Below the pieces are notes generated by a model. The model had not been told where the DNA came from, made no database searches, and saw only the letters and a list, made by a program, of their open reading frames with translations. 28,133 nucleotides of DNA. It comes from an uncultured Aquifex sp. (lineage in GTDB: Bacteria; Aquificota; Aquificia; Aquificales; QOAS01). This document shows, piece after piece, positions 6,799 through 25,062 of this stretch. Both the position numbers and the translations under genes were made by a program. The DNA lies in assembly GCA_964571355.1 (NCBI GenBank), contig CAZNBH010000001.1, positions 1 through 28,133 on the forward strand, in the 5' to 3' direction. The stretch's first letter is position 1, and every line of letters begins with the position of its first letter.

Positions 6799-7458
6799 TT
6801 AGGGTTTTGGCAAAACCATCCCAAAGCCGTCGATATTTTTCAATCCCAAACCGGTTTCGGAAATGAATTTCAACACCTCCCTCGGGGCGAAAACTTCAAA
6901 ATTCCCCGTAAGGGATTGTAGAGCCCTACCCTTAAAGTTTAGAGGTTTTACCCCGACCTCGAGAGGTTTTATTTCGAGCTTTTCCTCCAAGGGTTTCCCG
7001 TAATAGCTTTGGTACTTTTTGCGGATGTTTTCGACGAGAAACTCCGAAAGGTTCACACCTTCGGGAACCAATACGGGGGAAAGGGTTTTTAATTGAATAA
7101 CCTCGTCGGGAATTTTTACAAAAACCCTCTCCACCGAGAGGATATCGACATCGGTATCTCCCAACCGTAGGTTTTCCTCGAATATCAACCTATTCCTCAA
7201 AGGGGTAAGCTCGCAATCCCTTGGGGTGGCGAAGTAGACCCTAAAGTAGGGGTGGAAATAGAGAAAATTTCCCTCCCTTTTTAGGAACTTTCCAAAAATC
7301 CTCGAAAAGGTAAAGAAGTGGTAAACCTTCCCCTCCGAGGAGCGGGTGGCTATGCACTCCTCAAAAACCTCAAGGAGGAAATTCTTGAGGATACCGTTGT
7401 ACCTTCGGGGGATTTTTAGAGCTTCACCCCTTGCCCTAAAAAGGATTTTTAAAATCAA
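6799..7458 (-). CDS. cas6: Cas6-family RAMP protein, orphan
   Basis: C-terminal G-rich loop TGLGLKNIDGFGMV, FTFSR, KTLSPV and NIRKKY are typical of Cas6. TTG start with an AGGGGT SD-like site upstream. Confidence 0.8.
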   Translation of the reverse strand: MILKILFRARGEALKIPRRYNGILKNFLLEVFEECIATRSSEGKVYHFFTFSRIFGKFLKREGNFLYFHPYFRVYFATPRDCELTPLRNRLIFEENLRLGDTDVDILSVERVFVKIPDEVIQLKTLSPVLVPEGVNLSEFLVENIRKKYQSYYGKPLEEKLEIKPLEVGVKPLNFKGRALQSLTGNFEVFAPREVLKFISETGLGLKNIDGFGMVLPKP

Positions 7459-7469
7459 AGGAATAACCC

Positions 7470-7850
7470 CTAAAGGTTTAGTTTATCGGCGAATTCCTTG
7501 GCGGTATCTCCCCTTAAAACCTCCACCAAACCGGTAAGACCGTCCACCAAATATTTAGCGGGGATACCCTTGGACCTCAAAAAGGTCATCGCTATTATCG
7601 CCCTATCCTTGTGGGGGCAGGCGGTAACTATTAATTTGTCCTTCGGTAGGGTTTGATATTTTTGGGGTAACTCGTTGAGGGGTATATTAATCGAAGGTTG
7701 AACGTTCCAAGTTTTGTACTCCTCTTTAAACCTAATATCCACCAAAAGGGCTTTTCCCTCCTTTAGAGCCTCGACGAGTTGCTTCGCCGAGATTTTCATC
7801 TCCTTGCGGGTTTCGTAGTTGAAGTTTCTTAAAAAGGTTTCCAAATCCAT
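7470..7850 (-). CDS. Single-domain rhodanese/sulfurtransferase
   Basis: LLVDIRFKEEY, SINIPL and active-site loop CPHKDR. Confidence 0.85.
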   Translation of the reverse strand: MDLETFLRNFNYETRKEMKISAKQLVEALKEGKALLVDIRFKEEYKTWNVQPSINIPLNELPQKYQTLPKDKLIVTACPHKDRAIIAMTFLRSKGIPAKYLVDGLTGLVEVLRGDTAKEFADKLNL

Positions 7851-8699: not shown

Positions 8700-9165
8700 T
8701 TTTTTTCTTCTTTTAATACCCTTGTCGGTCTTTTCTTTTGAAATAACCAAAAAAGAGCTTGAAAAAATAGCCTGTTCCCAGTTGAGGAACCTATACTCGA
8801 ATGTAACCTGCAAGGGGATTATCTTTTACGGAAACCGTCTCAAGTTGGAGGGTGAAGGGTACCTCTTTATGGTAAAAAAATCGGGGAATTCCTTCCTCCT
8901 CGAGGTGGTAGACCCGAAAACTCTAAAACCGGTGAGGGTAATACCGATAAAAACCGATTCCACTACGGGGGAAAATCGAAAAAAAGGAATCCCTTACGGG
9001 AAAAAGGTAAAGGTTATTTTCATCAACGGGAACATAAGGATAGAAACGGACGGCGTAGTGGTGGGAAAAGGTTATAGCGATAACACCGTAAAGGTGAAGG
9101 TGGGTAAAAAATACTTTGTAGGAGTTTTACAAAATGAGGATACCGTTGTTGTTAGGCTTTATTAG
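8662..9165 (+). CDS. flgA: Short FlgA-like P-ring assembly chaperone
   Basis: Lies between flgG and flgH. Has a signal peptide ([18 protein letters not shown]) and a C-terminus [33 protein letters not shown] resembling the FlgA C-domain. Confidence 0.6.
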
Positions 9166-9832
9166 TTTGTCCTTTCTTTTTGGGTGCGCCCCACCGGAGC
9201 AAAACCTCCCTCCCCTCAACAAGGATAAAGCCTATACCGACTACGAGAAAACCGTAACAACCCCAAACCCTTATAGGGAACAACCCACCCAGGCGAGTTG
9301 GGGAAACTCCCTTTACAGCGACCGTTTCAACCTTTACAGCGACGTTAAGGCTTATAAGCGGGGAGATATTGTTTACATAATCGTTTACGAGAGTATAGAC
9401 GCCATTCAAAAATTGGCAACCCAAACCGGTCAACAACATCAGGTAAACAATGCTGTAAGTTCCTTTTTCGGGGTTCACCCCGCTACTTTGAGGAATTTGG
9501 GGGTAAACTGGCAATACCAATCGGGGTCCAAATACAGCGGAACCACCCAACAGAGCGGAATCTTGACAACCCGCCTTGCGGCTTATGTTAAAAAGGTTTA
9601 TCCCAACGGGAACCTATTAATAGAGGCGGTTAGATATATAAGGATTAACGAGGCAGGTCACAAGATAATCCTACGGGGAATAGTTAGGCCCGAGGATATA
9701 GGTCCCGATAACTCGGTTCCCTCCTCGAGGATAGCCAACCTCGAAATCATTTATAACGGCAAGGGATATATGGTAGACGCCTCCTCACCCGGTTGGTTTA
9801 CCCGCTTCTTATCCAAAATTTGGCCTTTTTAA
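9134..9832 (+). CDS. flgH: Flagellar L-ring lipoprotein FlgH
   Basis: Lipobox LFGC, LYSDVKAYKRGDIVYI, VYPNGNLLIEA, LRGIVRPEDI and GWFTRFLSKIWPF. Confidence 0.93.
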   Translation: MRIPLLLGFISLSFLFGCAPPEQNLPPLNKDKAYTDYEKTVTTPNPYREQPTQASWGNSLYSDRFNLYSDVKAYKRGDIVYIIVYESIDAIQKLATQTGQQHQVNNAVSSFFGVHPATLRNLGVNWQYQSGSKYSGTTQQSGILTTRLAAYVKKVYPNGNLLIEAVRYIRINEAGHKIILRGIVRPEDIGPDNSVPSSRIANLEIIYNGKGYMVDASSPGWFTRFLSKIWPF

Positions 9833-9939
9833 TTTTAGCAAACTTTTTCTGCGATTTTCCTTATCCTTTTATTTGAAATCCATTTCCACGATATAGCAAT
9901 ATAGGCTTTTAAAGAAAACTTAACAAAAGGGGGATTAAA

Positions 9940-10281
9940 ATGTTGGTAGCCTTTATAGTATTTGTAGTAGCCCTTATAGCTACCGTTGTCCTCTTTTGGC
10001 TTATTGCCCTCCTATACGCCCCTAAGGGTGATTCTGTCGCAAAACACGTTCCCTACGAATGTGCGGTTCCTCCCGAAGGTCCTATGCCTAAAAAATCCAA
10101 CTTTAGGTATTACTTCTTTGGAATTTTGTTCCTCGCAATGGATATGGTCGGAATGTTTATAGCTTTGGAAGTAATAACTAATGGAAAAAACCTATGGATT
10201 TATTTACTCTTTGTAATACCCCTACTCATCGCCATCTGGCACATCATAGGAGGTAAAAGGTATGTTGACCAAGTTTCTTGA
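9940..10281 (+). CDS. nuoA: Complex I-like subunit A (NuoA/FpoA)
   Basis: Three TM helices, loop PYECAVPP and FRYYFFGILFLAMD. Confidence 0.85.
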   Translation: MLVAFIVFVVALIATVVLFWLIALLYAPKGDSVAKHVPYECAVPPEGPMPKKSNFRYYFFGILFLAMDMVGMFIALEVITNGKNLWIYLLFVIPLLIAIWHIIGGKRYVDQVS

Positions 10282-10792
10282 TTTCTTCGGATGGGCAAGG
10301 GCAAACAGCCCGTGGATGGTTCACTACTGCTCGGGCTGTTGCTCTTTGGAAATATTGGCATTGATGGGACCCCGTTTTGACTGGGAGCGTTACGGTTTTC
10401 TCCCCGTTCCCTCGCCGAGGCAAGCCGACTTTATAGTTATAACCGGTTTGATATCCCGTAAAGTTTTGCCCGTTCTATTGATGACCTACGACCAAATGCC
10501 AAAACCCCGTTATGTTTTTGCCATAGGGGCGTGCGCCTTTGACGGAGGTCCTTACTATGACTCCACTTCGGTGGTTACCAACGTTCCCGAAATATTGCCC
10601 CCCGATGTATTTGTAGCCGGATGCCCTCCCACCCCCGAAGCTATTTTGGAAGGTCTATTGGAAATGAAAAAGATAATCCGCGAAAAGAGGGAGGCGAGGG
10701 CCGAAAAGGAAGGCACTTGGAGGGAAATCTTAAAGCAGGAACTCGAAAAGAATCCCTTACTATCGCAACAACCTTTCTTCGTAGGCGGTTAA
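10262..10792 (+). CDS. nuoB: Complex I-like Fe-S subunit B (NuoB / hydrogenase small-subunit family)
   Basis: CSGCCSLE, SPRQADFIVITG, QMPKPRYVFAIGACA and DVFVAGCPPTPEA. Confidence 0.92.
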   Translation: MLTKFLDFFGWARANSPWMVHYCSGCCSLEILALMGPRFDWERYGFLPVPSPRQADFIVITGLISRKVLPVLLMTYDQMPKPRYVFAIGACAFDGGPYYDSTSVVTNVPEILPPDVFVAGCPPTPEAILEGLLEMKKIIREKREARAEKEGTWREILKQELEKNPLLSQQPFFVGG

Positions 10793-10855
10793 ATCTTGAC
10801 AACCTCGGCGGGTTCTTTTTTATCTTATTTTCAATTTTTCCCACGGAGGAGTTAA

Positions 10856-11320
10856 ATGGGCTTCGAAGGTTTTGCCAAGCTTATGAAAACCTATTTTGGG
10901 ATAGAGGGTAAAGAATACCCCCAAAATAGGGTTGCAAAAACCTATCTATTCGAAATACAACCGCAGCATATCAGAGAAGTTGCAAAACTTTTAAAGGAAC
11001 AGGGATTTGTTTTTTTCCATACCTTGGCACCGGTGGATTATTCCCCCAAGGGGAGGGGTTTGGAGCTCAATTACTTCTTTGAAAACCCCGAAGAGGAAAT
11101 TTGGGTTTTAATAAGGACCGAAATCCCTTTGGAGAATCCCGAAATAGACTCCATTCACGACATCTTTCCCGCCCTCGAGGCCTGCGAAAGGGAGGAGTGG
11201 GAAAAGTTTGGAATTCAGTTTAAAGGTCATCCGAGACTTAAACCGATGCTCTTGGACGACACCCTCCAAGGGAAGTGGGTTCAGAGAAAGGCTTACATTC
11301 CCGAACCCCATAGAAAGTAA
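10856..11320 (+). CDS. nuoC: Complex I-like subunit C (NuoC)
   Basis: ELNYFF, IDSIHDIFP and CEREEWEKFGIQFKGHPRL; GGAGGA SD. Confidence 0.88.
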   Translation: MGFEGFAKLMKTYFGIEGKEYPQNRVAKTYLFEIQPQHIREVAKLLKEQGFVFFHTLAPVDYSPKGRGLELNYFFENPEEEIWVLIRTEIPLENPEIDSIHDIFPALEACEREEWEKFGIQFKGHPRLKPMLLDDTLQGKWVQRKAYIPEPHRK

Positions 11321-11331
11321 GGAGGTCGGTT

Positions 11332-12459
11332 ATGTACAAAGGTGCACAGATAATAACGCAAGAAATAGGTCGCGAAGGGGACTTAATGGTCCTCAACTGG
11401 GGTGTTCAGCACCCCGCCTCGGGACCTATGAGGATTAAAGTATGGCTCGACGGGGAGACCATAGTTAAAGTTGAAAACGACCCCGGCTACGTTACCCGCA
11501 ATCTCGAAAAGTTACTCGAATACCGAACCTGGGAAAATGCGGTGGTAAACGTCGAAAGGATTTGCTTTATAGATGACCTCGGAACGATTTTAAACTGGGC
11601 TCTGGCGGTGGAAAAGTTGGCGGAGGTAGAAGTTCCCAAAAATGTTCAATACTTCAGGGTAATCCTTGCAGAGGTGGGGAGGATAGTTTCCCACCTTATA
11701 GGAATAGGTGGTATGTTCGGAGCCCTGGGGGTTGCAACCCCCATGATGTGGGTATTGGCTTTAAGGGAATATTTCCTCGATTTCCTCGAACACTACTCCG
11801 GTTATAGGATTTCCACCGCCGCCATAGTGCCCGGTGGTGTGAGGTTTGAACCCACCAAGGAGGATTTTGAACTCCTCAAAAAGGCTATAGAGGAAACCGA
11901 AAGGCGCTGGCCCGAATACAAAGAGGTGTTTAAAGATAACCCCACCCTTGTGGAGAGGTACAAAGGTGTTGGAGTAATCCCTAAGGAGTTGGTTTATGAA
12001 CTAGGGCTTAGGGGACCCGTTGCAAGGGCTTCCGGTGTCGATTACGACCTTAGGAAAAAGTACCCCTATAGCTCCTACGAGGATTTCGAGTTTAACGTAA
12101 TCGTAAAAGAGGAGGGGGACGCCTACGCGAGATTTCTCGTAGTTCTCGAGGAAATAGAGGAATCACTAAAAATCATTAAGCAGGCTTTGGAAGGTATGCC
12201 CGAAGGGGATAAATGGAAGGTGAGGATGCCCAAGAAGGTAAAAGCCGGAGAAGCCTATTCCGCTGTCGAATGGGCGAGGGGAGGAATGGAGTACTTCGTT
12301 GTAAGCGACGGCGGAACGGGTCCTTATAGGGTAAAAATTTCTGCACCGTCCTTTATGAATATTTGGGCATTGGAAAAAATAGCACCGGGACATAAATTGG
12401 CCGACCTCGCCGCTATATTCGCAAGCCTTTACATTTGCCACGGAGACCTCGATAGATAA
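11332..12459 (+). CDS. nuoD: Complex I-like subunit D (NuoD/FpoD/MbsL family; not a four-Cys NiFe subunit)
   Basis: NWGVQHP, ERICFIDD, VPGGVR, GPVARASGVDYDLRK, EGDAYAR, SDGGTGPYRVKI and C-terminal ICHGDLDR. Confidence 0.92.
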   Translation: MYKGAQIITQEIGREGDLMVLNWGVQHPASGPMRIKVWLDGETIVKVENDPGYVTRNLEKLLEYRTWENAVVNVERICFIDDLGTILNWALAVEKLAEVEVPKNVQYFRVILAEVGRIVSHLIGIGGMFGALGVATPMMWVLALREYFLDFLEHYSGYRISTAAIVPGGVRFEPTKEDFELLKKAIEETERRWPEYKEVFKDNPTLVERYKGVGVIPKELVYELGLRGPVARASGVDYDLRKKYPYSSYEDFEFNVIVKEEGDAYARFLVVLEEIEESLKIIKQALEGMPEGDKWKVRMPKKVKAGEAYSAVEWARGGMEYFVVSDGGTGPYRVKISAPSFMNIWALEKIAPGHKLADLAAIFASLYICHGDLDR

Positions 12460-12472
12460 AGGAGGGGCAGTT

Positions 12473-13429
12473 ATGGAACAAATCAACTGGGGTTGGATTT
12501 TGTTTAAAACCCTTGTGTTTCCCGGGGTAACTTTCCTCCTACTGGTAATCTTTGCAACTTTTTACCTCGAGAGGAAGCTCGTCGCCGACATGCACGGTAG
12601 AACGGGACCTTACTACGTAGGCCCTTACGGAATACTCCAAACGGTTGCCGATATCTTCAAAATCCTCCAAAAGGAAGTAATAATTCACAGGGATGCCGAT
12701 AAGTTTCTATTCCTAATAGTTCCCGCCGTTGCGTTCCTTATGGTTGCCCTTGTAGCCGCCTTTATTCCCTACGACGAAAACCTCTGGATAGTATCGACAC
12801 CGTATGACCTCGTCATCTCGTTGGCACTCCTTACATCGCTACCTGCAATTTTCCTATTTGCGGGATGGGTTTCTAGGAGTAAATACCCCTTCATAGGTGG
12901 GATTAGGGTTATAAACCAGCTAATTTCCGGGGAAATTCCTTTATGGCTGGCGGGATTGTCGGTAGCGTTGTGGTATGGAACCTTTAACTATTTGGAAATC
13001 GTTCATAAATTCGACCTAATAGGCTTTCTGGTAAATCTTGTAGGCTTCGCAATCTTTTTAGTGGCTATTCTTATAGTTGCCGATAGACCTCCCTTCGATA
13101 TTCCCGAAGCGGAACAGGAAATTGTTTACGGGTTCCTAACCGAGTATACAGGGGTTGGTTATCTCCTATTGGCGGGTGCTAAATTCCTCGAAGTTTTCGT
13201 ATTGGCGGCTATGACCGTTACCCTCTTCTTGGGTGGATTTAAAGGTCCTTTTCTTCCCGGATGGGTATGGTTTTTGATAAAGGTATTTGCGGTTTACTAC
13301 CTGGCATTCGCCATTAGGGCTTCTACCCCACGGATTAGGCTCGACCAACTGATAAGGTTTACCTGGATTGTATTGGTTCCTTTAGCGTTGTTAAACATCG
13401 TTTTGATACTCTTAATCAAAGCACTTTAA
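12473..13429 (+). CDS. nuoH: Complex I-like subunit H (NuoH)
   Basis: YLERK...GRTGP, DIFKILQKE and RPPFDIPEAEQE...TEYTG; about 8 TM. Confidence 0.93.
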   Translation: MEQINWGWILFKTLVFPGVTFLLLVIFATFYLERKLVADMHGRTGPYYVGPYGILQTVADIFKILQKEVIIHRDADKFLFLIVPAVAFLMVALVAAFIPYDENLWIVSTPYDLVISLALLTSLPAIFLFAGWVSRSKYPFIGGIRVINQLISGEIPLWLAGLSVALWYGTFNYLEIVHKFDLIGFLVNLVGFAIFLVAILIVADRPPFDIPEAEQEIVYGFLTEYTGVGYLLLAGAKFLEVFVLAAMTVTLFLGGFKGPFLPGWVWFLIKVFAVYYLAFAIRASTPRIRLDQLIRFTWIVLVPLALLNIVLILLIKAL

Positions 13430-13441
13430 AGGAGGTTTAAT

Positions 13442-13900
13442 ATGCTTGGAAGGGTTCTGGAAAAAATAGTTTTAGTAGCAACTAGGGCTGCAAAGCCCAA
13501 AGATACCACTTACATACACGATAAGGATAAAAGACCGGAAAAACCCCAACGTTTTAGGGGAAGGCACGTTATAAACGCAGAAACCTGTATAGGTTGTTAC
13601 GCCTGCGAGAGGGCCTGCCCTATAGGGGCGATTATTATGGTTCCCACCGGATTGAAAAGACCCCGCGCTATGCCGGTTGTTAATTTGGGAAGGTGTTGTT
13701 TTTGCGGACTTTGCGAGGACGCTTGTCCGACCAAGGAGAAATCGATATACCTAACGGAGGATTACGAAATTATGGTTGAAGAAATAGAGCTTACACCTTT
13801 GTTGGACGAGTTATGGGCAAAACCTATAGGGGATATAACCAAAAATCCCCTTGTTATAAAGGATTTACAAAAGGCTAAGGAAAAGAAGGAGGGTAAATAA
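13442..13900 (+). CDS. nuoI: Complex I-like 2x[4Fe-4S] subunit I (NuoI)
   Basis: FRGRH, CIGCYACERACP and CCFCGLCEDACP. Confidence 0.92.
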   Translation: MLGRVLEKIVLVATRAAKPKDTTYIHDKDKRPEKPQRFRGRHVINAETCIGCYACERACPIGAIIMVPTGLKRPRAMPVVNLGRCCFCGLCEDACPTKEKSIYLTEDYEIMVEEIELTPLLDELWAKPIGDITKNPLVIKDLQKAKEKKEGK

Positions 13901-14382
13901 TGCTCCTTTATTTCCTTATATTGTTTACTGTAGTAATAGCCACCGCCGTAGCGGCAATAGAGTTGAACAACCTCATTTGGGTATTGGTGGCATTTGCAAC
14001 CCTTTTAACCGAAATAGCCCTTTTCTATTTCTCCCTCGGTTTTCCCCTGTTGGGGGCTTTTCAATTGGCGGTTTACGCCGGTGGTGTTGCCATACTGGTG
14101 TTATTCGCAATTCTAACCATCGGAGAAAGGGAAGAGGAAAAGAGGGAAAGCAAACTTGCGGCGGGTGTTGCCATAGCCACCTTTATAACCGGACTGATAG
14201 CCTCCATTTGGGCGGGAATCCATACGAAGCCTTACCTCGATATTTCTCTAAAGGAATTGGGTGAGGTTTTTGTGGACAAATATGCCATTCTGGTAATTCC
14301 TTTGGGTTTTACGGCTGTAGGTATCATTTACGGGGCTTATTACTTGCTCGCCAAGAAATTGCAAAAGGAGGAGAGGGAATGA
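13900..14382 (+). CDS. nuoJ: Complex I-like subunit J (NuoJ)
   Basis: Five TM helices, QLAVYAGGVAIL; coupled to nuoI by a TAATG overlap. Confidence 0.85.
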   Translation: MLLYFLILFTVVIATAVAAIELNNLIWVLVAFATLLTEIALFYFSLGFPLLGAFQLAVYAGGVAILVLFAILTIGEREEEKRESKLAAGVAIATFITGLIASIWAGIHTKPYLDISLKELGEVFVDKYAILVIPLGFTAVGIIYGAYYLLAKKLQKEERE

Positions 14383-14690
14383 AGTTCACCCACGAACCGA
14401 TGCTTTGGTTTTTGTTGGTTGCAATTTCCTTAATGGCAATAGGTATCTACGGACTCCTATCGAGGAAATCTATCTTAAAAATGATTATTTCGATAGAGAT
14501 AATCGTAAACGGGGCAAATGTAGGTCTTGCCGCCTTTGCAACCCAACACGGAGCCGACGGGGTTATACTCGCATTTTTTGCAATAGCGCTTGCGGCCTTA
14601 GAGGTAGCGGTAGGTTTGACATTGCTAATTATCCTTGCCCGTAAATATGGTATTACCTTCCCCGAAAAATTAAACAACTTGAGGTGGTAG
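14379..14690 (+). CDS. nuoK: Complex I-like subunit K (NuoK)
   Basis: IGIYGLL, SIEIIVNG and ALEVAVGL (both conserved Glu). Confidence 0.9.
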   Translation: MKFTHEPMLWFLLVAISLMAIGIYGLLSRKSILKMIISIEIIVNGANVGLAAFATQHGADGVILAFFAIALAALEVAVGLTLLIILARKYGITFPEKLNNLRW

Positions 14691-14692
14691 GG

Positions 14693-16525
14693 ATGGAGAG
14701 CCTAATCTACCTATCGGTATTACTACCGATTTTTGGCGCGCCGTTGGTTTGGGCGATAAGCCATTACACCAACAAGTGGTATTCGTGGTACTTATCCCTT
14801 GCCATTACCGGTTTATCTGCCCTTATCGCCTTGGCAACCGTAATCGGTGTAGCCTCCGGTCATATCTATCAGCACTCCTTTACGTGGTTTGAATTCGGAA
14901 ACGTAAAAGTCCCCTTCGGGATTTATGTGGACGGTGTTAGCGCCGTTGTCTATTCCATGGCCGCCCTACTCGGGTTCCTCATAGTTATGTACTCCCGCGG
15001 TTATATGGAGCACGACGAAAGTCCCCATAGGTTCTTTATGAAGGTAACCTTTTTTATCGGCTCTATGCTCGGTCTGACCGTATCGGATAACCTCCTCGGG
15101 ATGTTTATCTTCTGGGAATTCATGGGATTGGCATCTTATCTCCTAATCTCCTACTGGTATTACAGGGAAGCTCCGGCGGCCGCGGGATTGAAAGCCTTTT
15201 TAATGACTAAATTCGCCGATGGCTTCTTCCTTGCGGGGATAATCCTCCTGTGGTGGTATGCCGGAACGCTAAACGTTCCCGAAATAAACCATTTGGCGGA
15301 AACCGCCGCTATACCCGTGATTATTGCCGCAATATCCGCGTTGCTAATGTTCGGCGGAGCTATCGGTAAATCGGCTCAGTTCCCCCTATTCCCATGGCTA
15401 CTGGACGCTATGGAAGGTCCCACTCCGGTGTCGGCATTAATCCACGCCGCAACTATGGTTAACGCCGGGGTGTTTTTGGTGGGCAGGCTCTTCGATTTCT
15501 ACGCCTACTCCAAAGTTCTTTACGTTATCCTCGCGATAGGTGCTCTTTCCGCTTTTATAGCAGTTCTCGGCGCAATGGTTCATAGAGAAATCAAGAAGAT
15601 TATCGCCTTCTCCACCATGGAAAACCTCGGTCTGATGTTTGTTGGTTTGGGAGCCGGTTCACTTGCGGCTGGTCTCTTCCACCTGGTATCCCACGCCACC
15701 TTTAAGGCTTTAATGTTCCTATCGGCGGGTAACGTTATCCACTTCACCCACGAAAAGGATGCGTTCAAACTCCGCGGTCTTATGAAGGTAATGCCCTATA
15801 CCGCAATCCTATTCCTAATAGCCGTGCTATCCCTATCGGGTATTCCCCCTCTAAGTGGATTCTTCTCCAAAGAGTGGATAGTTCACGAGGCAAAAGAGGC
15901 GGGAGACCCTATAGCCTTTGCGTTTGTTCTAACCGCAGCGGTTCTAACTATCTACTACGGCTTTAGGTTGTGGTTCCAAATTTTTACCGGTGAACCCAAT
16001 GAAAAAGCCAAACACGCAAGGGAAGCCTACCCCATAATGTTGATTCCTCTATTTGTATTGGCAACTTTAACCTTCCTTGTGGGTATATTCCATCAACCTA
16101 TAATCCATCTAATAGAGGAACACGCCCACATACCCCACGATTGGGCTTTCACCGCATTGATATTCTCGCTTATGGCTATCGCGTTTGGATTGGCATGGTT
16201 GATTTACTACAAGAGGGCAATCAATACCGAAGAGCTCTTAAAGGACCCTATAATGGCGGTATTGAACAAAACCTTCTATAACGCCTTTTTCGTAGACCAC
16301 ATCCTAAGGTGGCTTTCGAAGAATTTCGTTGTGGAATTCCTCGCATGGTTGGCCCACTGGATAGACCGTAACGTTTACGATTACATCGTCAACGGGGTTG
16401 CCAAAACCGCACTTTGGACTTGGGAAAAGGTTCGTGTTATCCAAACCGGTAACTTAATCCATTACCTAACCATATTCGTTAGTGGTGCGGTAATTCTTTA
16501 CTACCTCTACCTCGTAATACTTTAA
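14693..16525 (+). CDS. nuoL: Complex I-like antiporter subunit L (NuoL)
   Basis: WEFMGLASYLL and GKSAQFPLFPWLLDAMEGPTPVSALIHAATMV, with a long C-terminal helix and final TM. ATG 14693 is preferred over GTG 14684. Confidence 0.93.
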   Translation: MESLIYLSVLLPIFGAPLVWAISHYTNKWYSWYLSLAITGLSALIALATVIGVASGHIYQHSFTWFEFGNVKVPFGIYVDGVSAVVYSMAALLGFLIVMYSRGYMEHDESPHRFFMKVTFFIGSMLGLTVSDNLLGMFIFWEFMGLASYLLISYWYYREAPAAAGLKAFLMTKFADGFFLAGIILLWWYAGTLNVPEINHLAETAAIPVIIAAISALLMFGGAIGKSAQFPLFPWLLDAMEGPTPVSALIHAATMVNAGVFLVGRLFDFYAYSKVLYVILAIGALSAFIAVLGAMVHREIKKIIAFSTMENLGLMFVGLGAGSLAAGLFHLVSHATFKALMFLSAGNVIHFTHEKDAFKLRGLMKVMPYTAILFLIAVLSLSGIPPLSGFFSKEWIVHEAKEAGDPIAFAFVLTAAVLTIYYGFRLWFQIFTGEPNEKAKHAREAYPIMLIPLFVLATLTFLVGIFHQPIIHLIEEHAHIPHDWAFTALIFSLMAIAFGLAWLIYYKRAINTEELLKDPIMAVLNKTFYNAFFVDHILRWLSKNFVVEFLAWLAHWIDRNVYDYIVNGVAKTALWTWEKVRVIQTGNLIHYLTIFVSGAVILYYLYLVIL

Positions 16526-16538
16526 AGGGGGAAGGAAA

Positions 16539-17972
16539 ATGTTGCTAAGTGCGATTTTAATTCCCGTTTTGCTCGCCCCTTTTGCCTATTTCTTCGATAG
16601 GTGGGCAAGATATATATCCCTTGCGGCGGCAATATTCGTAACCTTTGTAGGGGCTTATTTATGGTTTAACTATCCCGGTCAGGGTTTCGCATTTCAGGAG
16701 TTTTATCCGATACTCCCTCAGTGGGATTTTAACCTTCACCTCGGTGTAGATGCCCTTTCGATAGCCCTTATAACCTTGACCGGAATAATCGCAATACTCG
16801 TAACCCTCTCCTCTTGGAATGTGGAACGGGCAGGGGCTTACTTCTTCCTAATCCTCGTATTCCTCGGTGCTATGGTCGGTGTTTTCGCATCGCTAAACTA
16901 CCTGTGGTTTTTCATCTTTTGGGAATTTACCCTCGTTCCCATGTTTTTCCACATAGGGATTTGGGGTGCGGAAAACAGGATTTACGCGGCTGTTAAGTTT
17001 TTCCTATACACCCACCTTGCATCCATATTTATCTTTTTGGCCATTCTCATTATCTTCGTAAACACCGGTCATTTCGATTTCCTCGCCATTAAGCAGGCCA
17101 ACCTACCTATAGATTTGCAAAAAATTATTTGGGCTTTGGCCTTTGTCGGATATATCGTAAAAATGCCCGTTGTTCCCTTCCACACCTGGCTACCCGATGC
17201 CCACGTTCAGGCACCCTCCCCGATTTCGGTAATCCTGGCCGGTTTGCTCCTAAAAATGGGAGCTTACGGTTTGCTCCGTTGGAATATAGAACTCTTTCCC
17301 GAAGCTTCCAAGCATTTCATCTACTTAATGCTTGCCATAGGTTTGCTCACGGTATTCCACGCCGCCTTTAAAGCTCTATACGAGGACCACGTTAAAAGAA
17401 TGGTTGCTTACTCTTCCATCAACCATATGGGTTTAGTCTTGGTGGCATTGGCAACCCTTTCGGCGGTTGGAATAAGTGCAGCCATTTACGAGATGGTAGC
17501 CCACGCCCTAATCATTTCCCTAATGTTTATGATTGCGGGATATATCCACCATATAACCGGAACCTGGTACATCTCCCAAATAGGGGGAGGTTTGTTAAGG
17601 AAGTTTCCCTTTATAGGTACCCTCTATATGCTCGGAGCATTGGGTGCTTTAGGATTTCCCGGAACCGCCGGTTTTATTGGTGAGGTAACCGCTATTTATG
17701 CGGCCTTTGACAAATTCGGTTGGATAGCCTTAGCACTACCTTTCTCCGCGGTATTAACCGCTGGATTCTTCTTCTGGGCTATCAGAAGGATGCTGCACGG
17801 GGAACCCTCCGAATTGGTTAAAAACTTGCATTCCCATCCCCTCCCGGTGGTCGAAAGAATTCCCCTAATGGCTTATGTTGTGCTATTTGTATTGCTCGGC
17901 ATAGTTCCCTCTATACTTTTCGGCTTCATCAATAGCTACGCCAACACCTTAGGAAAAGTATTGGGAGGTTAA
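16539..17972 (+). CDS. nuoM: Complex I-like antiporter subunit M (NuoM)
   Basis: FWEFTLVP, VKMPVVPFHTWLPDAHVQAP, LLKMGAYG and GFIGEV. Confidence 0.93.
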   Translation: MLLSAILIPVLLAPFAYFFDRWARYISLAAAIFVTFVGAYLWFNYPGQGFAFQEFYPILPQWDFNLHLGVDALSIALITLTGIIAILVTLSSWNVERAGAYFFLILVFLGAMVGVFASLNYLWFFIFWEFTLVPMFFHIGIWGAENRIYAAVKFFLYTHLASIFIFLAILIIFVNTGHFDFLAIKQANLPIDLQKIIWALAFVGYIVKMPVVPFHTWLPDAHVQAPSPISVILAGLLLKMGAYGLLRWNIELFPEASKHFIYLMLAIGLLTVFHAAFKALYEDHVKRMVAYSSINHMGLVLVALATLSAVGISAAIYEMVAHALIISLMFMIAGYIHHITGTWYISQIGGGLLRKFPFIGTLYMLGALGALGFPGTAGFIGEVTAIYAAFDKFGWIALALPFSAVLTAGFFFWAIRRMLHGEPSELVKNLHSHPLPVVERIPLMAYVVLFVLLGIVPSILFGFINSYANTLGKVLGG

Positions 17973-17974
17973 CG

Positions 17975-19405
17975 ATGAACTGCGTAATATTCGGCGGAAT
18001 ACTAACCTTGGCCTTTGGAGGATTGTTGGTTCCCGTTATAGGGAACCTTTTTAAACTTTCCCGTTCTTGGCTTCTAAATCTCTATATGGTGGTATTCCTC
18101 ATAGCGGGTCTTTTGTTCCTATACGGTTTTAACCACGGGTCGTTACTGTATCCCAACCTCTTTACAACCGATACGGTTGCCTATCTACTAACCTTATTCG
18201 TTTGGTTTACCGGTGCGGTGGTTCTAATAACGATATTCAACACTTTGAAGGAAATCGAAAATCTTGCGGAAATACTCGGGGTTTATACCATATCCCTTGC
18301 GGGAGCTATTTTGACCCTTTACGCTTCCAATTTCGTTTCGTTCCTCGTCGCTATGGAACTTATGACCATTCCCTCCTACTACCTAATAATGGCAAGGCTT
18401 AACGCGATAACCGCGGAGGCGGCCACTAAATATTTCTTCAACGGAGCACTCTCCACCGGCTTTTTCCTATTCGGTATGTTGGTCATATACGCCCTAACGG
18501 GGTCTTTGGAATTCTCCAAGATTAACGAATTCTTTACCCAAGCCGATACGTTGAGCCTCCTATTTTTCGCCTTTGGATTCATAGGAATACTTTCCGCTAT
18601 AGGTTTTAAAATGTCCTTTGCGCCATACCACTTTTACGCACCCGACGTTTACACCGGTGCGCCCGCCTCCGTTGCGGCTTATCTTGCGGGAATTACCAAA
18701 AGTGCCGTAGCCGTACCGGTAATAAGGATATTCTTCGAAGCTCTGCAGTTTCAAAAGGCCGATTGGGCTATCCTACTCGCCATACTGGCGGTTATCACGA
18801 TGACCGTTGGAAACCTGTTGGCACTGGCCCAACAAAATGTTGCCCGTATACTCGCCTATTCGTCGATAGCCCACGCCGGTTATATCCTTGTGGGTTTTGC
18901 GGCTGCAGCCTCGAGCTTGGCCATTACCGGAATCGTTTACCAAGCCGTCGCCTACATATTGATGAAGGCGGGAGCCTTTCTCATAGTGACCCTACTGATT
19001 TACTACTACGGGATAAAAACCCGCCAAGAGTTAAGGGGTTTTGGAAAGGTTAACCCCTTTATGGCTCTGGTGTTCACCATATTGCTCCTCTCGCTTGCCG
19101 GTGTTCCTCCAACCGCCGGTTTTATAGCCAAGGTTTACCTCTTCCAAGCGGCCGTAGACGCCGGAATGGCTTGGTTGGCGTTTGTAGGGTTGCTAAACTC
19201 CGCCTTTGCGGTCGCCTACTACCTATGGATTATTAAAGAAATGTATCTCGAAGAGCCCCAAACCGTAAAAAAACCCTCCGATACGAGCTTTATAACCCCG
19301 ACTTTGGCAATAGGCTTGCTCGCCGTCCTATCGGTGATATTCGGAATTTGGGTAACCCCCGTGGTAAACGCATCTATAGCCTTTACCAACCTCTTTCCCT
19401 TTTAA
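17975..19405 (+). CDS. nuoN: Complex I-like antiporter subunit N (NuoN)
   Basis: MELMTIPSY, EAATKYF, GFKMSFAPYHFYAPDVYTGAP, LAYSSIAHAGY and SLAGVPPTAGFIAK. Confidence 0.93.
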   Translation: MNCVIFGGILTLAFGGLLVPVIGNLFKLSRSWLLNLYMVVFLIAGLLFLYGFNHGSLLYPNLFTTDTVAYLLTLFVWFTGAVVLITIFNTLKEIENLAEILGVYTISLAGAILTLYASNFVSFLVAMELMTIPSYYLIMARLNAITAEAATKYFFNGALSTGFFLFGMLVIYALTGSLEFSKINEFFTQADTLSLLFFAFGFIGILSAIGFKMSFAPYHFYAPDVYTGAPASVAAYLAGITKSAVAVPVIRIFFEALQFQKADWAILLAILAVITMTVGNLLALAQQNVARILAYSSIAHAGYILVGFAAAASSLAITGIVYQAVAYILMKAGAFLIVTLLIYYYGIKTRQELRGFGKVNPFMALVFTILLLSLAGVPPTAGFIAKVYLFQAAVDAGMAWLAFVGLLNSAFAVAYYLWIIKEMYLEEPQTVKKPSDTSFITPTLAIGLLAVLSVIFGIWVTPVVNASIAFTNLFPF

Positions 19406-20084
19406 GGTTCTTTCCCTTTAAACACCTTTCCCTCAAAGGACAAATATCGCACTTAGGTTCCCTTTTGAGGCAAAAGTTTTTCCCGAGTTCGTCCAACAGC
19501 GCGTGGAACTCCTTATAGACCGGAACATTTTTGGGTAAAAATTCCTCAAACAACCCCTTTGCGGTATCGTAATTAAAACCCCTACCGGTATACCTCTCCA
19601 ACCACCTCAAGGTGTACTTATCTATCACAAAACTCGGAACGTTATAGGCGTATAGGAGTATAACATCGGCGGTTTCCTTTCCAATCCCTTTGACCCTTAA
19701 AAGGTCTCCCCTTTTGGGAATAGCCCCCTTTAGGGAACGGATAAACTTTGCGACCTCCTTTAGGTAAATAGACTTTTGCCTATAGAACCCCGTCGGTTGG
19801 ACGAAAAAATGGAGTTCCTCGAGGGGGATTTTCTCCACAAACCTCAACGATAGTTCGCCGTATTCTTTGAACCTTTCGAGGGAACGCTCGACGTTTTTCC
19901 ACGACGTGTTTTGGGTTAAAACCGCCCCTATAACAATTTCGTCAAAGGGGTTTGTTTTCCTCCGAAGGTGGTAATTCCAATCGATGGGCCACCAGTTTTG
20001 CTTCCCGAAAAAGGATAAAAGGGTTAAATAGACCTCAAAAAGGTCGGCGTTTATCTTTTCCCCCATGGGTCGGAATTCTTCCAA
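19383..20084 (-). CDS. HhH-GPD endonuclease III-related DNA glycosylase with Fe-S cluster loop
   Basis: GAVLTQNTSWKNV, LLRVKGIGKETAD, FVIDKYT and C-terminal CLKREPKCDICPLRERC. Alternative start 20066. Confidence 0.88.
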   Translation of the reverse strand: MEEFRPMGEKINADLFEVYLTLLSFFGKQNWWPIDWNYHLRRKTNPFDEIVIGAVLTQNTSWKNVERSLERFKEYGELSLRFVEKIPLEELHFFVQPTGFYRQKSIYLKEVAKFIRSLKGAIPKRGDLLRVKGIGKETADVILLYAYNVPSFVIDKYTLRWLERYTGRGFNYDTAKGLFEEFLPKNVPVYKEFHALLDELGKNFCLKREPKCDICPLRERCLKGKNLKRERGW

Positions 20085-20126
20085 ACCTTTAAGGGGATAA
20101 GGATAAGGGAAAACCTTTAAAGGGGA

Positions 20127-20624
20127 CTACTCCCCGTAATATTCCGCCTTAGAAGTTGCGGTTTCCCATACCGCCACCTTTACCACCGAAACGTCCTTTA
20201 CACCCGCCTCTTTAAATTTTTGTTCTAAGTATTTATAGATAAACTCCGCCAACCGCTCCGCGGTTGGGACAAAGTCGACGACAAAGAGCTTTAAACCGAA
20301 CTGCTCCGCCATTTCCTTCAACTTGGGAAATAGGGGGTCGTTCTTATCGACTATAAAGGAGTGGTCGAGGCGGTAGTCTATTAGCTCCCTAATGGCACTC
20401 TTTAGGTGGTAAAAATCCATAACCATATCGGCGTCCAACGTATCGGAACCGATGGTAATCTCCACCACGTAGCTATGACCGTGTAAATGGCGGCACTTGT
20501 TCTCGGGGGGGCAAGCGTTCCCACTGAGGGATGAACCCCTACCTTGGGCTAAATTTTGATTCCAAACCCTATGTCCCGCCTCGAAGCGGTAAACCTTCGT
20601 AATTTCGTACCTAAAGCGTTTCAT
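20127..20624 (-). CDS. queD: 6-carboxytetrahydropterin synthase QueD (PTPS family)
   Basis: FEAGH, CRHLHGHSY, MVMDFYHLK, LDH, PTAERLA and VWET. Confidence 0.88.
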   Translation of the reverse strand: MKRFRYEITKVYRFEAGHRVWNQNLAQGRGSSLSGNACPPENKCRHLHGHSYVVEITIGSDTLDADMVMDFYHLKSAIRELIDYRLDHSFIVDKNDPLFPKLKEMAEQFGLKLFVVDFVPTAERLAEFIYKYLEQKFKEAGVKDVSVVKVAVWETATSKAEYYGE

Positions 20625-20655
20625 TCCCTCTTATTTTCCAATAAAGGGAAAGGAG

Positions 20656-20675
20656 GAAAAATAACCCCGACGGGG
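20656..20675 (-). terminator. Weak terminator-like hairpin after the RND gene
   Basis: The minus strand reads cccc-gtc-gggg followed by ttatttttc. Confidence 0.35.
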
Positions 20676-20679
20676 AAAC

Positions 20680-23799: not shown

Positions 23800-25062
23800 C
23801 TATACAAAGACCCCCTCCAGGGGTGCGGGTTCCAGTTTATCCCCTAAATAGGGATGTAGTTCGAGCAAATAATCCTTTCCGAGGTTATAACTTTGAGCCC
23901 CGAGAACCGCAAGGGTAATCCTTCCGCTTTTGATTTCCCCGAGGTGTTCTTTAATAAATTCCTCCACCTCTTGGGGGTTTACCCCTTCCCCACCAAAGGT
24001 GGTATCGGCGGGTATGAAATAGACCTTTTCGGGGTTTTCCAAATTACCGATTAACAGATTGCGGGACTTTACAAACTGCACCCTCACCTCGAGGGTGGCG
24101 GAAATCCGGTTTTCCCTTAGAAGGTTCTCGTATTTTTTCTCCACCAAAAAGGTCGGATTTGATAGACCTACCCCCTTTAGGGGATAGCCCTTTAGTTCCT
24201 CCACCAGTTCTATAACTACGTTTTGCCTGTTTAGGTAGAGCCTATTTTCCACCTTCCTTACAACGTCCCCCTTTGCGACCCCCCTAATCGGTGCAGAAAA
24301 GGGTTTTATCAACGAGGGGATAACCTTTTTAAGTTTCGGTATCTCTATCTTTCCCCTCAAAGGGAACCACCCCAAGAATTGGAATTCCTCCTCCTTGGTG
24401 GGTAGTTCCAAAAGTTCGGCAAACACCTTGAGGGTTCTAATAAAAATGTGTTCCTCCTTGGTTCCCGGTATTCTCCCGTAAAACCCCACGAGGTCCAAAA
24501 AGGAGTTTTCCCCCTTTTGTTGGAGTAGGGCAAACATACACCCGCAGTAGTCCTGCCTCCAAATTTCGAGCTCCTTTACGAGTTTGTTCATTTCCTGAAC
24601 GCCGCCCTTTTTGCGGTAATCCTTGAAGATGAATTCGACCCCGTAGAGGTTCTCCAGTTTCTTTCCCACCTTTTGGAGTTGCTCCTGACTCTTTTTCGGG
24701 GACATAAGGAGGGTTGTTGTAAAGGCGTCGCACCCGAGCTCCTTGGCGAGTTTTACCGAGCTCTCGAGGCGGTCGTCGAAGCACAAAACGCACCTAGCCC
24801 CCTTTTCCGGCTCGTTTTCGTAGCCCTTTACCCTTTTTAGCCACCCCTCAAGGTTATAATCCCCCTCTATAAATTCAATTCCCAGAAGGTGGCAAGCCCT
24901 CTCGCTCTCCTTCAAACGGAGTAAATATTCCTCATAGGGGTGTATATTGGGGTCGTAAAAGTAACCGATAATTTCGGCGTCTGGGTAATCTTCCCTAAGC
25001 CTTTTTAAAAAATAAATCGCGTCGACCGCGCAACAAATGTGGGCTAAAATCTTTTTGGGCAT
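23800..25062 (-). CDS. queH: Epoxyqueuosine reductase QueH with long C-terminal extension
   Basis: HICCAVD, YDPNIHPYEEY, RCVLCF, TTLLMSPKK and RQDYCGC within the first 180 aa, then about 240 extra aa. Confidence 0.85.
   Translation of the reverse strand: MPKKILAHICCAVDAIYFLKRLREDYPDAEIIGYFYDPNIHPYEEYLLRLKESERACHLLGIEFIEGDYNLEGWLKRVKGYENEPEKGARCVLCFDDRLESSVKLAKELGCDAFTTTLLMSPKKSQEQLQKVGKKLENLYGVEFIFKDYRKKGGVQEMNKLVKELEIWRQDYCGCMFALLQQKGENSFLDLVGFYGRIPGTKEEHIFIRTLKVFAELLELPTKEEEFQFLGWFPLRGKIEIPKLKKVIPSLIKPFSAPIRGVAKGDVVRKVENRLYLNRQNVVIELVEELKGYPLKGVGLSNPTFLVEKKYENLLRENRISATLEVRVQFVKSRNLLIGNLENPEKVYFIPADTTFGGEGVNPQEVEEFIKEHLGEIKSGRITLAVLGAQSYNLGKDYLLELHPYLGDKLEPAPLEGVFV

Follow-up and report, generated by a model that had tools for sequence, protein, structure and literature searches.

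A nuoD-type gene with relic NiFe cysteines and a predicted non-standard quinone pocket in an uncultured genus of Aquificales

With what does a complex I homologue exchange electrons when its D subunit lacks the residues that bind and protonate quinone and keeps two cysteines of the NiFe hydrogenase motifs? The question is raised by a nuoD-type gene in the window studied here, the whole stretch of 28,133 nucleotides that we analysed from an uncultured Aquificales genus. We found that its product, P0001, is almost certainly the NuoD-type (D, 49-kDa) subunit in a complex I homologue with 11 subunits, NuoABCDHIJKLMN, which belongs to the “ancestral NUO11/NUO10” clade found in Aquificota and Campylobacterota. 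This identity follows from profile matches, from motif agreement with 120 homologues, from the position in the tree and from the published description of the clade (PMC4758237). The gene and the sites discussed below are:

11332..12459, + strand: nuoD-type gene encoding P0001, 375 aa (PF00346, E=1.3e-76)
11401..11433, + strand: beta1-beta2 loop GVQHPASGPMR, residues 24-34, without His38 and one residue short of the complex I loop (Nqo4 and MbsL alignments)
11485..11502, + strand: GYVTRN where GY[LV]HRG is expected (homologue comparison)
11563..11574, + strand: C78-F79-I80-D81, relic of NiFe motif L1, with Cys as ligand 1, Phe for Tyr87 and Asp as ligand 2 (Nqo4, MbsL and EchE alignments)
11722..11724, + strand: A131, aligned with Asp139 of complex I (Nqo4 alignment)
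12436..12447, + strand: C369-H370-G371-D372, relic of NiFe motif L2, with Cys as ligand 3 and Asp as ligand 4 (Nqo4, MbsL and EchE alignments)

The D subunit and its clade

Profile searches place P0001 in the complex I 49-kDa/NuoD superfamily, with 257.7 bits for PF00346 against a cut-off of 24 and 370 bits for NF004739 against 360. The canonical NuoD equivalog TIGR01962 stays below its cut-off (330.7 versus 459 bits), membership in FpoD fails (NF040602, 283.6 versus 600 bits), and nickel-hydrogenase models reach at most 23 bits against a cut-off of 600. Top matches among solved structures were Nqo4 (256 bits) and MbsL (217 bits). The start at 11332 is supported by 12 homologues of 81-95% identity with full-length coverage. 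An AlphaFold2 model from an 8-sequence alignment has a mean pLDDT of 71, with values under 50 for two functional loops (25-31 and 53-77); with this model Foldseek returned generic complex I D subunits alone (TM 0.76-0.79) and did not discriminate between MbsL and Nqo4. No second D-type gene was found in the source genome, whose assembly is 85% complete.

Alignment to Nqo4 of Thermus thermophilus gives HPAS-GP with a one-residue gap exactly at His38, which bears out the remark of a first-pass annotation that the loop is one residue short and lacks its second His. The remaining correspondences are C78 to Asp86, F79 to Tyr87, A131 to Asp139, C369 to Val403 and D372 to Asp406. The changes of RLDY to RICF (Tyr87 being F79) and of GYxHRG to GYVTRN, also pointed out earlier, are real, and the His of GY[LV]HRG is present in 138 of 148 diverse family representatives. 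With the quinone head-group triad His38/Tyr87/Asp139 missing entirely, P0001 does not classify as a canonical quinone-reducing NuoD, and the loss of all three residues supports the prediction that its pocket is not a standard quinone site.

The pocket agrees with that of Pyrococcus furiosus MbsL (6u8y_L), to which the beta1-beta2 loop aligns without a gap and where C78 matches C85, D81 matches E88, C369 matches C385 and D372 matches D388; like an MBS L subunit, P0001 keeps two of four Cys and has neither His38 nor Tyr87. Against the large subunit EchE of a sister-genome Ech (P0123; RVCGLC and DPCLSC), C78 takes the place of the first Cys in L1 and C369 of that in L2, with D81 and D372 at the respective second Cys. 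The only two Cys of P0001, at codons 11563 and 12436, thus lie where the first-pass annotation had put them, each with Asp at the second Cys position of its motif. The group 4 [NiFe] ligand set RxCGxC plus DPCxxC is therefore incomplete. Because two of the four Ni/Fe cysteines are left and the nickel-hydrogenase models score so low, the sequence supports the earlier view that P0001 is not a hydrogenase. Canonical complex I has Asp at the D372 position too (GD/E-x-DR), which leaves D81 as the only unusual one of the two Asp.

Next we consider how widely this pattern is shared. C78, F79, D81, C369 and D372 are invariant, down to 42% identity, in those of the best 120 homologues that cover the positions. 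Nearly all of the 120 carry the HPASGP motif, and the Asp139 position is occupied by A, V, T or N. These homologues come from Desulfurobacteriaceae, Nautiliaceae, Sulfurovum, Sulfurimonas and the present genus, with identities of 58-61% to the NuoD of Desulfurobacterium and Thermovibrio and of 42-49% to the NuoCD fusions of Campylobacterota. Across the 148 representatives, the first and third NiFe Cys are both kept in 15 and one alone in 4; this joint retention and the invariance within the clade indicate that the two-Cys pattern is beyond chance. Canonical NuoD has neither Cys, in-phylum controls included, as the first-pass annotation had stated; its statement that FpoD retains them also holds, and FpoD keeps Tyr87 together with them. 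In a single FastTree phylogeny, the query groups with Desulfurobacterium and Nautilia NuoD as a monophyletic clade (support 0.998), outside the common ancestor of 78 canonical NuoD sequences.

Any claim to novelty or rarity did not survive, since the same motif set defines the whole clade represented by the best 120 homologues and was published in 2015 for Desulfurobacteriales and Nautiliales as the “ancestral NUO11/NUO10” type (Degli Esposti, Genome Biol Evol, PMC4758237). The window shows its residue signature (Cys at Thermus positions 86 and 403, no His38, Tyr87 and Asp139 replaced) and its operon, nuoABCDHIJKLMN without nuoEFG, in a gene order shared with Desulfurobacterium, Nautilia and Sulfurovum. 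What the window adds is a lineage and a set of constraints, namely a genus without NuoF, menaquinone synthesis and a conserved doublet Cys, and not a new kind of enzyme. Our literature search on the biochemistry or structure of the clade found genomic and proteomic papers alone.

The proximal cluster and the membrane arm

The other subunits are encoded around nuoD as follows:

9940..10281, + strand: nuoA (PF00507)
10262..10792, + strand: nuoB, encoding P0122, 176 aa, which carries the proximal [4Fe-4S] cluster (PF01058)
10328..10342, + strand: C23-S-G-C26-C27 in NuoB, the MbsJ/hydrogenase-type CxxC combined with the complex I tandem CC (gapless alignment)
10856..11320, + strand: nuoC, separate from D and fused with it in Campylobacterota members (PF00329)
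12473..13429, + strand: nuoH, with the acidic motif of the TM5-6 loop kept (PF00146; Paracoccus NuoH alignment)
13442..13900, + strand: nuoI, 2x[4Fe-4S], probable site of electron exchange with ferredoxin (Fer4 families, TIGR01971)
13900..14690, + strand: nuoJ and nuoK (PF00499, PF00420)
14684..19405, + strand: nuoL, nuoM and nuoN, three antiporter-like subunits (PF00361, PF00662)

NuoB has Cys at positions 23, 26, 27, 91 and 121, and its motif aligns without a gap to FCTGCG of MbsJ and YGTACC of NdhK. C[ST]GCC is found in the NuoB of all 68 clade loci, as compared with GLACC in six canonical controls; this universal C-x-G-C-C is an addition of the present analysis over PMC4758237, according to which the NuoB Cys doublet first appears in Fpo. 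C27, the doublet Cys of complex I, occupies the position of MbsJ Gly29 in a loop of identical length. A three-Cys proximal cluster as in MBS is thus not predicted from NuoB, and since C27 fills the Gly29 position, an open-iron cluster, the MBS hallmark, is not expected from this alignment.

These observations bear on whether the complex could be a ferredoxin:sulfane-sulfur (polysulfide) reductase, a bacterial counterpart of archaeal MBS built on the complex I architecture and using the former NiFe cavity as its site. In its favour, the D subunit and MbsL have loops of equal length and share the two Cys and the two acidic positions, NuoB is, in its N-terminal region, closer to MbsJ than to any other solved chain, sulfur respiration is common among carriers, and Desulfurobacterium and Thermovibrio have no known respiratory S0/thiosulfate reductase. 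However, the open-iron cluster on which MBS catalysis is based is not expected here, and the MbsL Cys pair is dispensable. In the MBS report (PMC7684303), MbsL keeps C85 and C385 and the C85A/C385A mutant retains activity with dimethyltrisulfide, in line with the first-pass annotation.

The membrane arm points the same way. NuoL, NuoM and NuoN each retain the four conserved charged residues (Glu/Lys) seen in solved structures, and the arm is of the full four-site complex I type with its pump residues intact. No Mrp-specific gene lies between flgH and the convergent glycosylase gene, so the arm is not Mrp-like as in MBS. Four pump sites would be a misfit, with excess pumping, for the transfer from ferredoxin to polysulfide, about 41 kJ per 2e-, which MBS serves with two pumps (PMC8165549); they would fit a transfer from ferredoxin to menaquinone, roughly 70-80 kJ per 2e-. 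Members of the clade are also present in sulfur oxidisers (Sulfurimonas, Sulfurovum, Sulfuricurvum, Thiovulum), the present genus has cytochrome bd and a NarG-like enzyme, and the complex is scarce in thiosulfate-grown D. thermolithotrophum.

The neighbourhoods give no further lead. We considered the DsrE gene that follows nuoN in D. thermolithotrophum as a conserved sulfur-transfer neighbour and rejected it, as it occurs in 1 of 12 Desulfurobacteriaceae and is absent from the other 11 and from the source genome. No conserved partner gene adjoins the operon in Desulfurobacterium, Nautilia, Sulfurovum or other Desulfurobacteriaceae, and the downstream genes differ in Nautilia and Sulfurovum as well. 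As to expression, contigs of hydrothermal-vent metatranscriptomes match the operon from nuoA to nuoN at 90-100% identity, with no match on the far flanks.

On this evidence we consider a sulfane reductase rather unlikely. Of the acceptor suggested by the first-pass annotation, polysulfide or an atypical quinone, the atypical quinone site is the likelier half, and NuoB C27 speaks against the polysulfide half. Unlikely, too, is the broader proposal that the clade is the respiratory enzyme for sulfur reduction that is missing in Desulfurobacteriaceae, Nautiliaceae and their relatives, a proton pump of complex I architecture that would reduce polysulfide or a persulfide carrier and not quinone in a pocket made of the two relic NiFe Cys, the two acidic residues and the extra B-subunit Cys beside the N2-like cluster; if true, the clade would represent a surviving stage between MBS and complex I.

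Electron donor and acceptor in the genus

A conventional NAD(P)H-linked complex I, with NuoEFG encoded elsewhere, would carry electrons in reverse from menaquinol to NAD(P)+, a model already put forward for both Nautilia (PMC2628731) and D. thermolithotrophum (PMC12724263). A separate nuoGFE operon in D. thermolithotrophum and the published reverse-flow model for Nautilia favour this possibility. However, the NuoF-family domain (PF01512) is absent from all eight genus genomes, six of them at least 93% complete, which also excludes RnfC, and we rejected the location of NuoEFG elsewhere on this ground; Nautilia likewise has no nuoEFG, and the D pocket is non-canonical. We regard NAD(P)H linkage as highly improbable, and for this genus it is close to refuted.

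Members of the genus produce menaquinone and use the rTCA cycle. A demand for ferredoxin is indicated in the source genome by ATP-citrate lyase and two loci for 2-oxoacid:ferredoxin oxidoreductase, and the complex is encoded in all eight genus genomes, Ech in three. MqnA/MqnD occur in 8/8 genus genomes, and all 18 high-quality Desulfurobacteriaceae have the Mqn family, so that among these genomes no clade carrier without quinone biosynthesis was found; this universal presence weakly supports a quinone partner. Quinone-linked partners in the genus include a group 1 NiFe hydrogenase, cytochrome bd and a NarG-sized molybdoenzyme.

Our favoured reading, to which we assign about an even chance, is that of a proton pump which works reversibly between ferredoxin and menaquinone and has a non-canonical pocket. 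Ferredoxin would deliver or take up electrons at NuoI, and these would travel over three [4Fe-4S] clusters, reach an N2-like proximal cluster with Cys as every ligand, and be exchanged with menaquinone/menaquinol in the non-canonical pocket, where the Cys pair, D81 and D372 could stand in for the His/Tyr/Asp proton relay. Coupling would be about 4 protons per 2e- and reversible. In this H2-oxidising rTCA autotroph the complex may run in reverse, using menaquinol and the proton-motive force to produce reduced ferredoxin.

Several observations count against this menaquinone reading. The missing triad binds and protonates the quinone head group in all complex I enzymes characterised so far, the coupling loop is short by one residue, and Degli Esposti holds that these complexes predate effective quinone reactivity (PMC4758237). 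Proteomes of D. thermolithotrophum detected NuoC and NuoI as the sole subunits. The complex is absent from Aquificaceae and Hydrogenothermaceae, though they use the rTCA cycle, and is therefore not a universal requirement of that cycle. Finally, a simple quinone site does not account for the strict retention of three “relic” Cys (C78 and C369 in D, C23 in B).

The Cys pair could itself be the active site, either a redox dithiol/disulfide or a 2Cys-2Asp mononuclear metal site, passing electrons to a thiol, persulfide or heterodisulfide-type acceptor, soluble or protein-bound, or it could serve residual proton reduction. C78 and C369 correspond to the two terminal Ni ligands, and family members keep or lose them jointly (15 versus 4); D81 and D372 do not vary in the clade, and a disulfide reductase has been suggested as the partner of an Fpo-like complex whose D subunit is similar (PMC4758237). 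In MBS the equivalent Cys are neighbours at a distance of some 12 A from the proximal cluster, and the part of the MBS report covered here mentions no metal at this site; the MBS double mutant is active, the operon has no conserved neighbouring partner gene, and D372 is a canonical complex I residue too. We consider a Cys-pair active site quite unlikely.

The clade and known systems

The clade sits between the energy-converting hydrogenases/MBS and true complex I, and unites an MBS-like catalytic pocket, a complex I-type N2 Cys doublet and a full four-site pump. Its substrate would date the rise of quinone reactivity, and would reveal either the ferredoxin source of rTCA vent autotrophs or the sulfur respiration of Desulfurobacteriaceae; the question can be addressed in relatives that are in culture (Desulfurobacterium, Thermovibrio, Nautilia, Caminibacter).

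MBS of Pyrococcus furiosus (PDB 6U8Y; PMC7684303) resembles the present complex in D/L by loop length, two Cys, acidic residues at the other ligand positions and the loss of His38/Tyr87, and in B/J by the CxGC motif and loop length. It differs in having Gly in MbsJ where NuoB has the second doublet Cys, with an open-iron cluster in MBS and probably none here, and in its Mrp-type arm of MbsH/H' and a Na+ module, with two pumps, as opposed to NuoA/H/J/K/L/M/N. Nqo4/NuoD of Thermus thermophilus (PDB 4HEA) is the best match in sequence and similar in fold, and complex I shares the partner subunits, the pump residues and the B-subunit tandem Cys; the present D, however, has lost His38/Tyr87/Asp139, has Cys at 86 and 403 and is missing the insertion of about 35 residues at 301-338, and NuoEFG are missing here.

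Fpo, the F420H2:methanophenazine oxidoreductase, shares the 11-subunit core, and FpoD has both relic Cys and no His38; true FpoD nevertheless keeps Tyr87 (C-Y at 86-87) and forms a separate branch of the tree. Cyanobacterial NDH-1 and a complex I-like enzyme of Desulfitobacterium (PMC11238625) also work without an NADH module, with ferredoxin as the proposed donor and quinone as the acceptor. Their pocket, however, is canonical. Tyr87 is kept in the D subunit of NDH-1. NDH-1 also retains His38 and Asp139 (Degli Esposti, PMC4758237), and its NdhK (6HUM) has a plain tandem Cys without the extra Cys of the present NuoB.

The closest system remains NUO11/NUO10 of Desulfurobacteriales and Nautiliales (PMC4758237), with the same 11-gene order without nuoEFG, NiFe Cys 1 and 3, and the same pocket losses; as in Desulfurobacterium, C and D are separate genes. 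The host differs in being an uncultured genus, other families of whose order have canonical NuoD, and whereas that paper puts the NuoB doublet first in Fpo, here the doublet coexists with the hydrogenase-type Cys.

The nuo locus and its genomic setting

The D-subunit gene belongs to an operon of eleven contiguous genes, all with clear family matches, on contig C1 of a metagenome-assembled genome (1.04 Mb, 85% complete). Genes for NuoE, F and G are found neither between nuoD and nuoH nor at either end of the operon.

Genes of the locus and its flanks (window coordinates)
9134-9832: flgH, upstream neighbour of the operon, with nuoA (from 9940) directly next
9940-19405, forward strand: NuoA, B, C, D, H, I, J, K, L, M and N
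10262-10792: NuoB, with five Cys
11332-12459, forward strand: D subunit (P0001), 375 aa
Downstream, convergent: HhH-GPD glycosylase gene

Vent metatranscriptome contigs (one study, three runs) map to nuoA-nuoN at 9656-19502 with 90-100% identity, one 224-nt piece matching nuoB exactly, and none fall on the far flanks at 7400-7843 or 19832-20700. Although contigs from RNA libraries are no proof, this is consistent with transcription of nuoA-nuoN. Upstream of the flagellar genes, the reverse strand carries a single-domain rhodanese (7470-7850) and an isolated Cas6-family gene (6799-7458), with no further cas genes among the window ORFs examined. A 420-aa ORF (23800-25062, reverse strand) has a QueH (epoxyqueuosine reductase) domain at residues 5-179 only; for the C-terminal 240 residues Pfam gives no match.

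In none of the eight genomes of the genus (six are at least 93% complete) was a NuoF-family domain found, which excludes RnfC as well and nearly excludes an NAD(P)H-linked complex I in this genus. MqnA and MqnD occur in all eight, cytochrome bd in seven including the host, and an NrfD-type subunit in six, with none found in the host (85% complete); no haem-copper oxidase was found in the genus. The host and most siblings have the large subunit of a group 1 [NiFe] hydrogenase at full length. Furthermore, the host encodes a NarG-sized molybdoenzyme (1266 aa), ATP-citrate lyase and two 2-oxoacid:ferredoxin oxidoreductase loci. Because of these enzyme genes we regard it as an H2-oxidising autotroph that uses the rTCA cycle, has a menaquinone pool and constantly requires reduced ferredoxin. 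It has no Ech, Rnf or any NuoF-type bifurcating enzyme.

Whereas the nuo operon is constant in the genus (8/8), Ech is variable (3/8). Genuine echABCDEF operons lie between flgH and nuoA in two sister genomes, a third has ech on a separate short contig, and the window has none; the NiFe motifs of the sister operons are intact. In genome G089 (contig C58, L036:4602-9726) the complete echABCDEF, inserted between flgH and nuoA, follows a myo-inositol-1-phosphate synthase gene. In G105 (C107:~63000-65996) the distance from echE to the downstream nuoD is about 2 kb, and G095 carries ech on contig C2.

A two-cysteine pocket shared by a clade

The translation of P0001 contains two cysteines only, C78 and C369, which are the first Cys of the NiFe motifs L1 and L2 when set against P0123, a true Ech large subunit from a sister genome (RVCGLC and DPCLSC). 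HMMER alignment with Thermus thermophilus Nqo4 pairs C78 with Asp86, F79 with Tyr87, A131 with Asp139, C369 with Val403 and D372 with Asp406, and the HPAS-GP loop, one residue shorter, has its gap exactly at the missing His38. [quoted passage not shown]

The sequence statements of the first-pass annotation were all correct, among them the replacement of the GY-x-HRG histidine (GYVTRN) and the Asp at the second Cys position of each motif; the fourth-position Asp is, however, a canonical complex I residue too. Of 148 diverse representatives of the family, among them hydrogenases, 138 keep the histidine, which is lost throughout the clade of ancestral-type relatives of P0001. Its replacement, T55, is encoded at 11494-11496; clade members have T, L, F or W. 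With two of the four NiFe cysteines left and the canonical triad lost, the earlier views that this is not a hydrogenase and has no standard quinone site are both supported.

The best 120 homologues form three groups: near relatives (81-95% identity), Desulfurobacterium/Thermovibrio (~60%) and Campylobacterota NuoC-D fusions (42-47%). ER-x-CF-x-D and the near-C-terminal x-C-x-GD occur in every one covering those positions, and HPASGP in nearly all. As judged from these sequences, the two-Cys pocket is a character of the clade and no peculiarity of P0001. By genome name, carriers include "Aquificales/Aquificota bacterium" MAGs, Thermovibrio, Desulfurobacterium, Nautiliaceae, Sulfurovum, Sulfurimonas, Sulfuricurvum, Nitratifractor, Ca. 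Thiovulum and a few MAGs labelled Thiotrichales. Five MAG contigs (L081, L082, L083, L090, L093) labelled Thiomicrospira, Francisella, Thiotrichales or Piscirickettsiaceae hold a Nautiliaceae-type member, with NuoD at 44-45% identity to P0001 and NuoB VHFCSGCCSLEM; this could reflect horizontal transfer to Gammaproteobacteria, or contigs that were wrongly binned and labelled.

Within 1.84 billion representatives at 50% identity the clade comprises two, after which the score falls from 317 to 269 bits. In-phylum controls, taken from other families, show canonical features throughout (P-x-THG, RMDY or RLDY, LDLG, no Cys). Of the 148 representatives, 85 have the canonical state (no Cys, Tyr/Trp87). 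The remainder are 29 four-Cys hydrogenases, 15 sequences with exactly the first and third Cys, four with one, and 15 lacking both Cys and Tyr87; the two-Cys group includes true FpoD (C-Y, above the NF040602 cut-off) and Mbx/Mbs-like sequences. In a FastTree phylogeny rooted on the Ech subunit the clade is monophyletic (support 0.998) and falls within the non-hydrogenase group, separate from the clade of all 78 canonical sequences. Two large families of the host's order have canonical NuoCD paralogues only (37-39% identity), and the genus's nearest NuoD relatives (~60%) belong to a family related at class level only, suggesting differential loss or lateral transfer of the entire operon.

Across the family, the first Cys and the third are kept or lost together, and the three relic Cys stay unchanged over deep divergence; no current model accounts for this. 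Both observations favour a direct role for the two Cys, as a dithiol or in a metal site, which we nevertheless hold to be unlikely. MbsL retains C85 and C385, in line with the first-pass annotation, and the C85A/C385A enzyme is still active with dimethyltrisulfide (PMC7684303).

The novelty of the D-subunit pattern had been overstated, as it belongs to a kind already published. NuoD of Desulfurobacteriales/Nautiliales keeps the first and third NiFe Cys (Thermus positions 86 and 403), lacks His38 and has Tyr87 and Asp139 replaced, and these operons were described as the most ancestral NUO11/NUO10 (Degli Esposti 2015, PMC4758237); MbsL also lacks the His38 and Tyr87 equivalents (PMC7684303). The window's enzyme is thus a further example of this known kind, for which literature searches found no biochemical or structural work on the clade.

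NuoB, the membrane arm and the electron acceptor

NuoB has Cys at positions 23, 26, 27, 91 and 121. For its N-terminal 53 residues the best match among all solved chains is MbsJ, the B counterpart in MBS, and the N-terminus aligns gapless to both MbsJ (F-C25-T-G-C28-G29) and cyanobacterial NdhK (Y-G-T-A-C-C), NuoB reading Y-C23-S-G-C26-C27. The hybrid C-S-G-C-C, encoded at 10328-10342 (residues 23-27), joins an MbsJ-type CxxC to the complex I CC doublet. C-[ST]-G-C-C occurs in all 68 clade loci with the region covered, and six canonical NuoB controls have G-L-A-C-C. In the scheme of Degli Esposti 2015 the doublet first appears in Fpo (PMC4758237); given the doublet here, the clade's place in that scheme may need re-reading.

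In the membrane arm, the counterparts of E. coli E144, K234, K265 and E407 are conserved in NuoM, NuoN and NuoL keep the TM5 Glu, TM7 Lys, TM8 Lys and TM12 Lys, the NuoL alignment runs through the C-terminal extension, and NuoH keeps PFD-x-x-EAE-x-E and GW-x-S-x-SKYP. These conserved residues therefore indicate a four-site complex I-type arm.

Collectively, the predicted enzyme has complex I architecture without NuoEFG; its pump is intact, its B subunit has five Cys and its pocket lacks the canonical quinone triad. As the most likely mechanism, we hypothesize that ferredoxin would dock at NuoI and that electrons would pass through three [4Fe-4S] clusters to an N2-like cluster and on to menaquinone/menaquinol, bound non-canonically. 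The reaction may be reversible, and its reverse run in the host would yield ferredoxin for the rTCA cycle. Several indirect arguments point to menaquinone: its synthesis co-occurs universally with the complex, the other components of the chain are linked to quinone, NuoB carries the complex I doublet Cys, and sulfur oxidisers as well as sulfur reducers carry the clade. Furthermore, four pump sites would fit the ferredoxin-to-menaquinone span better than the ~41 kJ per 2e- that drives the two pumps of MBS (PMC8165549).

In one Desulfurobacterium thermolithotrophum locus (L003:18174-18524) a DsrE-family gene, adjoined by an IS605 OrfB/Cas12f-like pair, directly follows nuoN; it is confined to this species, one of 12 Desulfurobacteriaceae checked.

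The earlier proposal of polysulfide or an atypical quinone as acceptor holds for the non-standard site, polysulfide being the less likely acceptor. A sulfane reductase would agree with the likeness of D and B to MbsL and MbsJ, and would fill the vacant place of a respiratory sulfur reductase in Desulfurobacterium and Thermovibrio; we nonetheless consider it unlikely, as the B subunit, the type of membrane arm and the clade distribution argue against it and sulfur neighbour genes are not conserved.

Catalysis in MBS has been attributed to a proximal cluster that has three Cys ligands only, the absent fourth ligand leaving a catalytic open iron (PMC7684303). NuoB has both Cys of MbsJ but differs where MbsJ has Gly, carrying there, as complex I does, the second Cys of the doublet. 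By sequence it would offer a fourth ligand at the complex I position, and because this ligand is available the feature that defines MBS appears to be lacking. Likewise, MBS and MBH have an Mrp-like arm, in contrast to the four-site complex I arm of the present enzyme.
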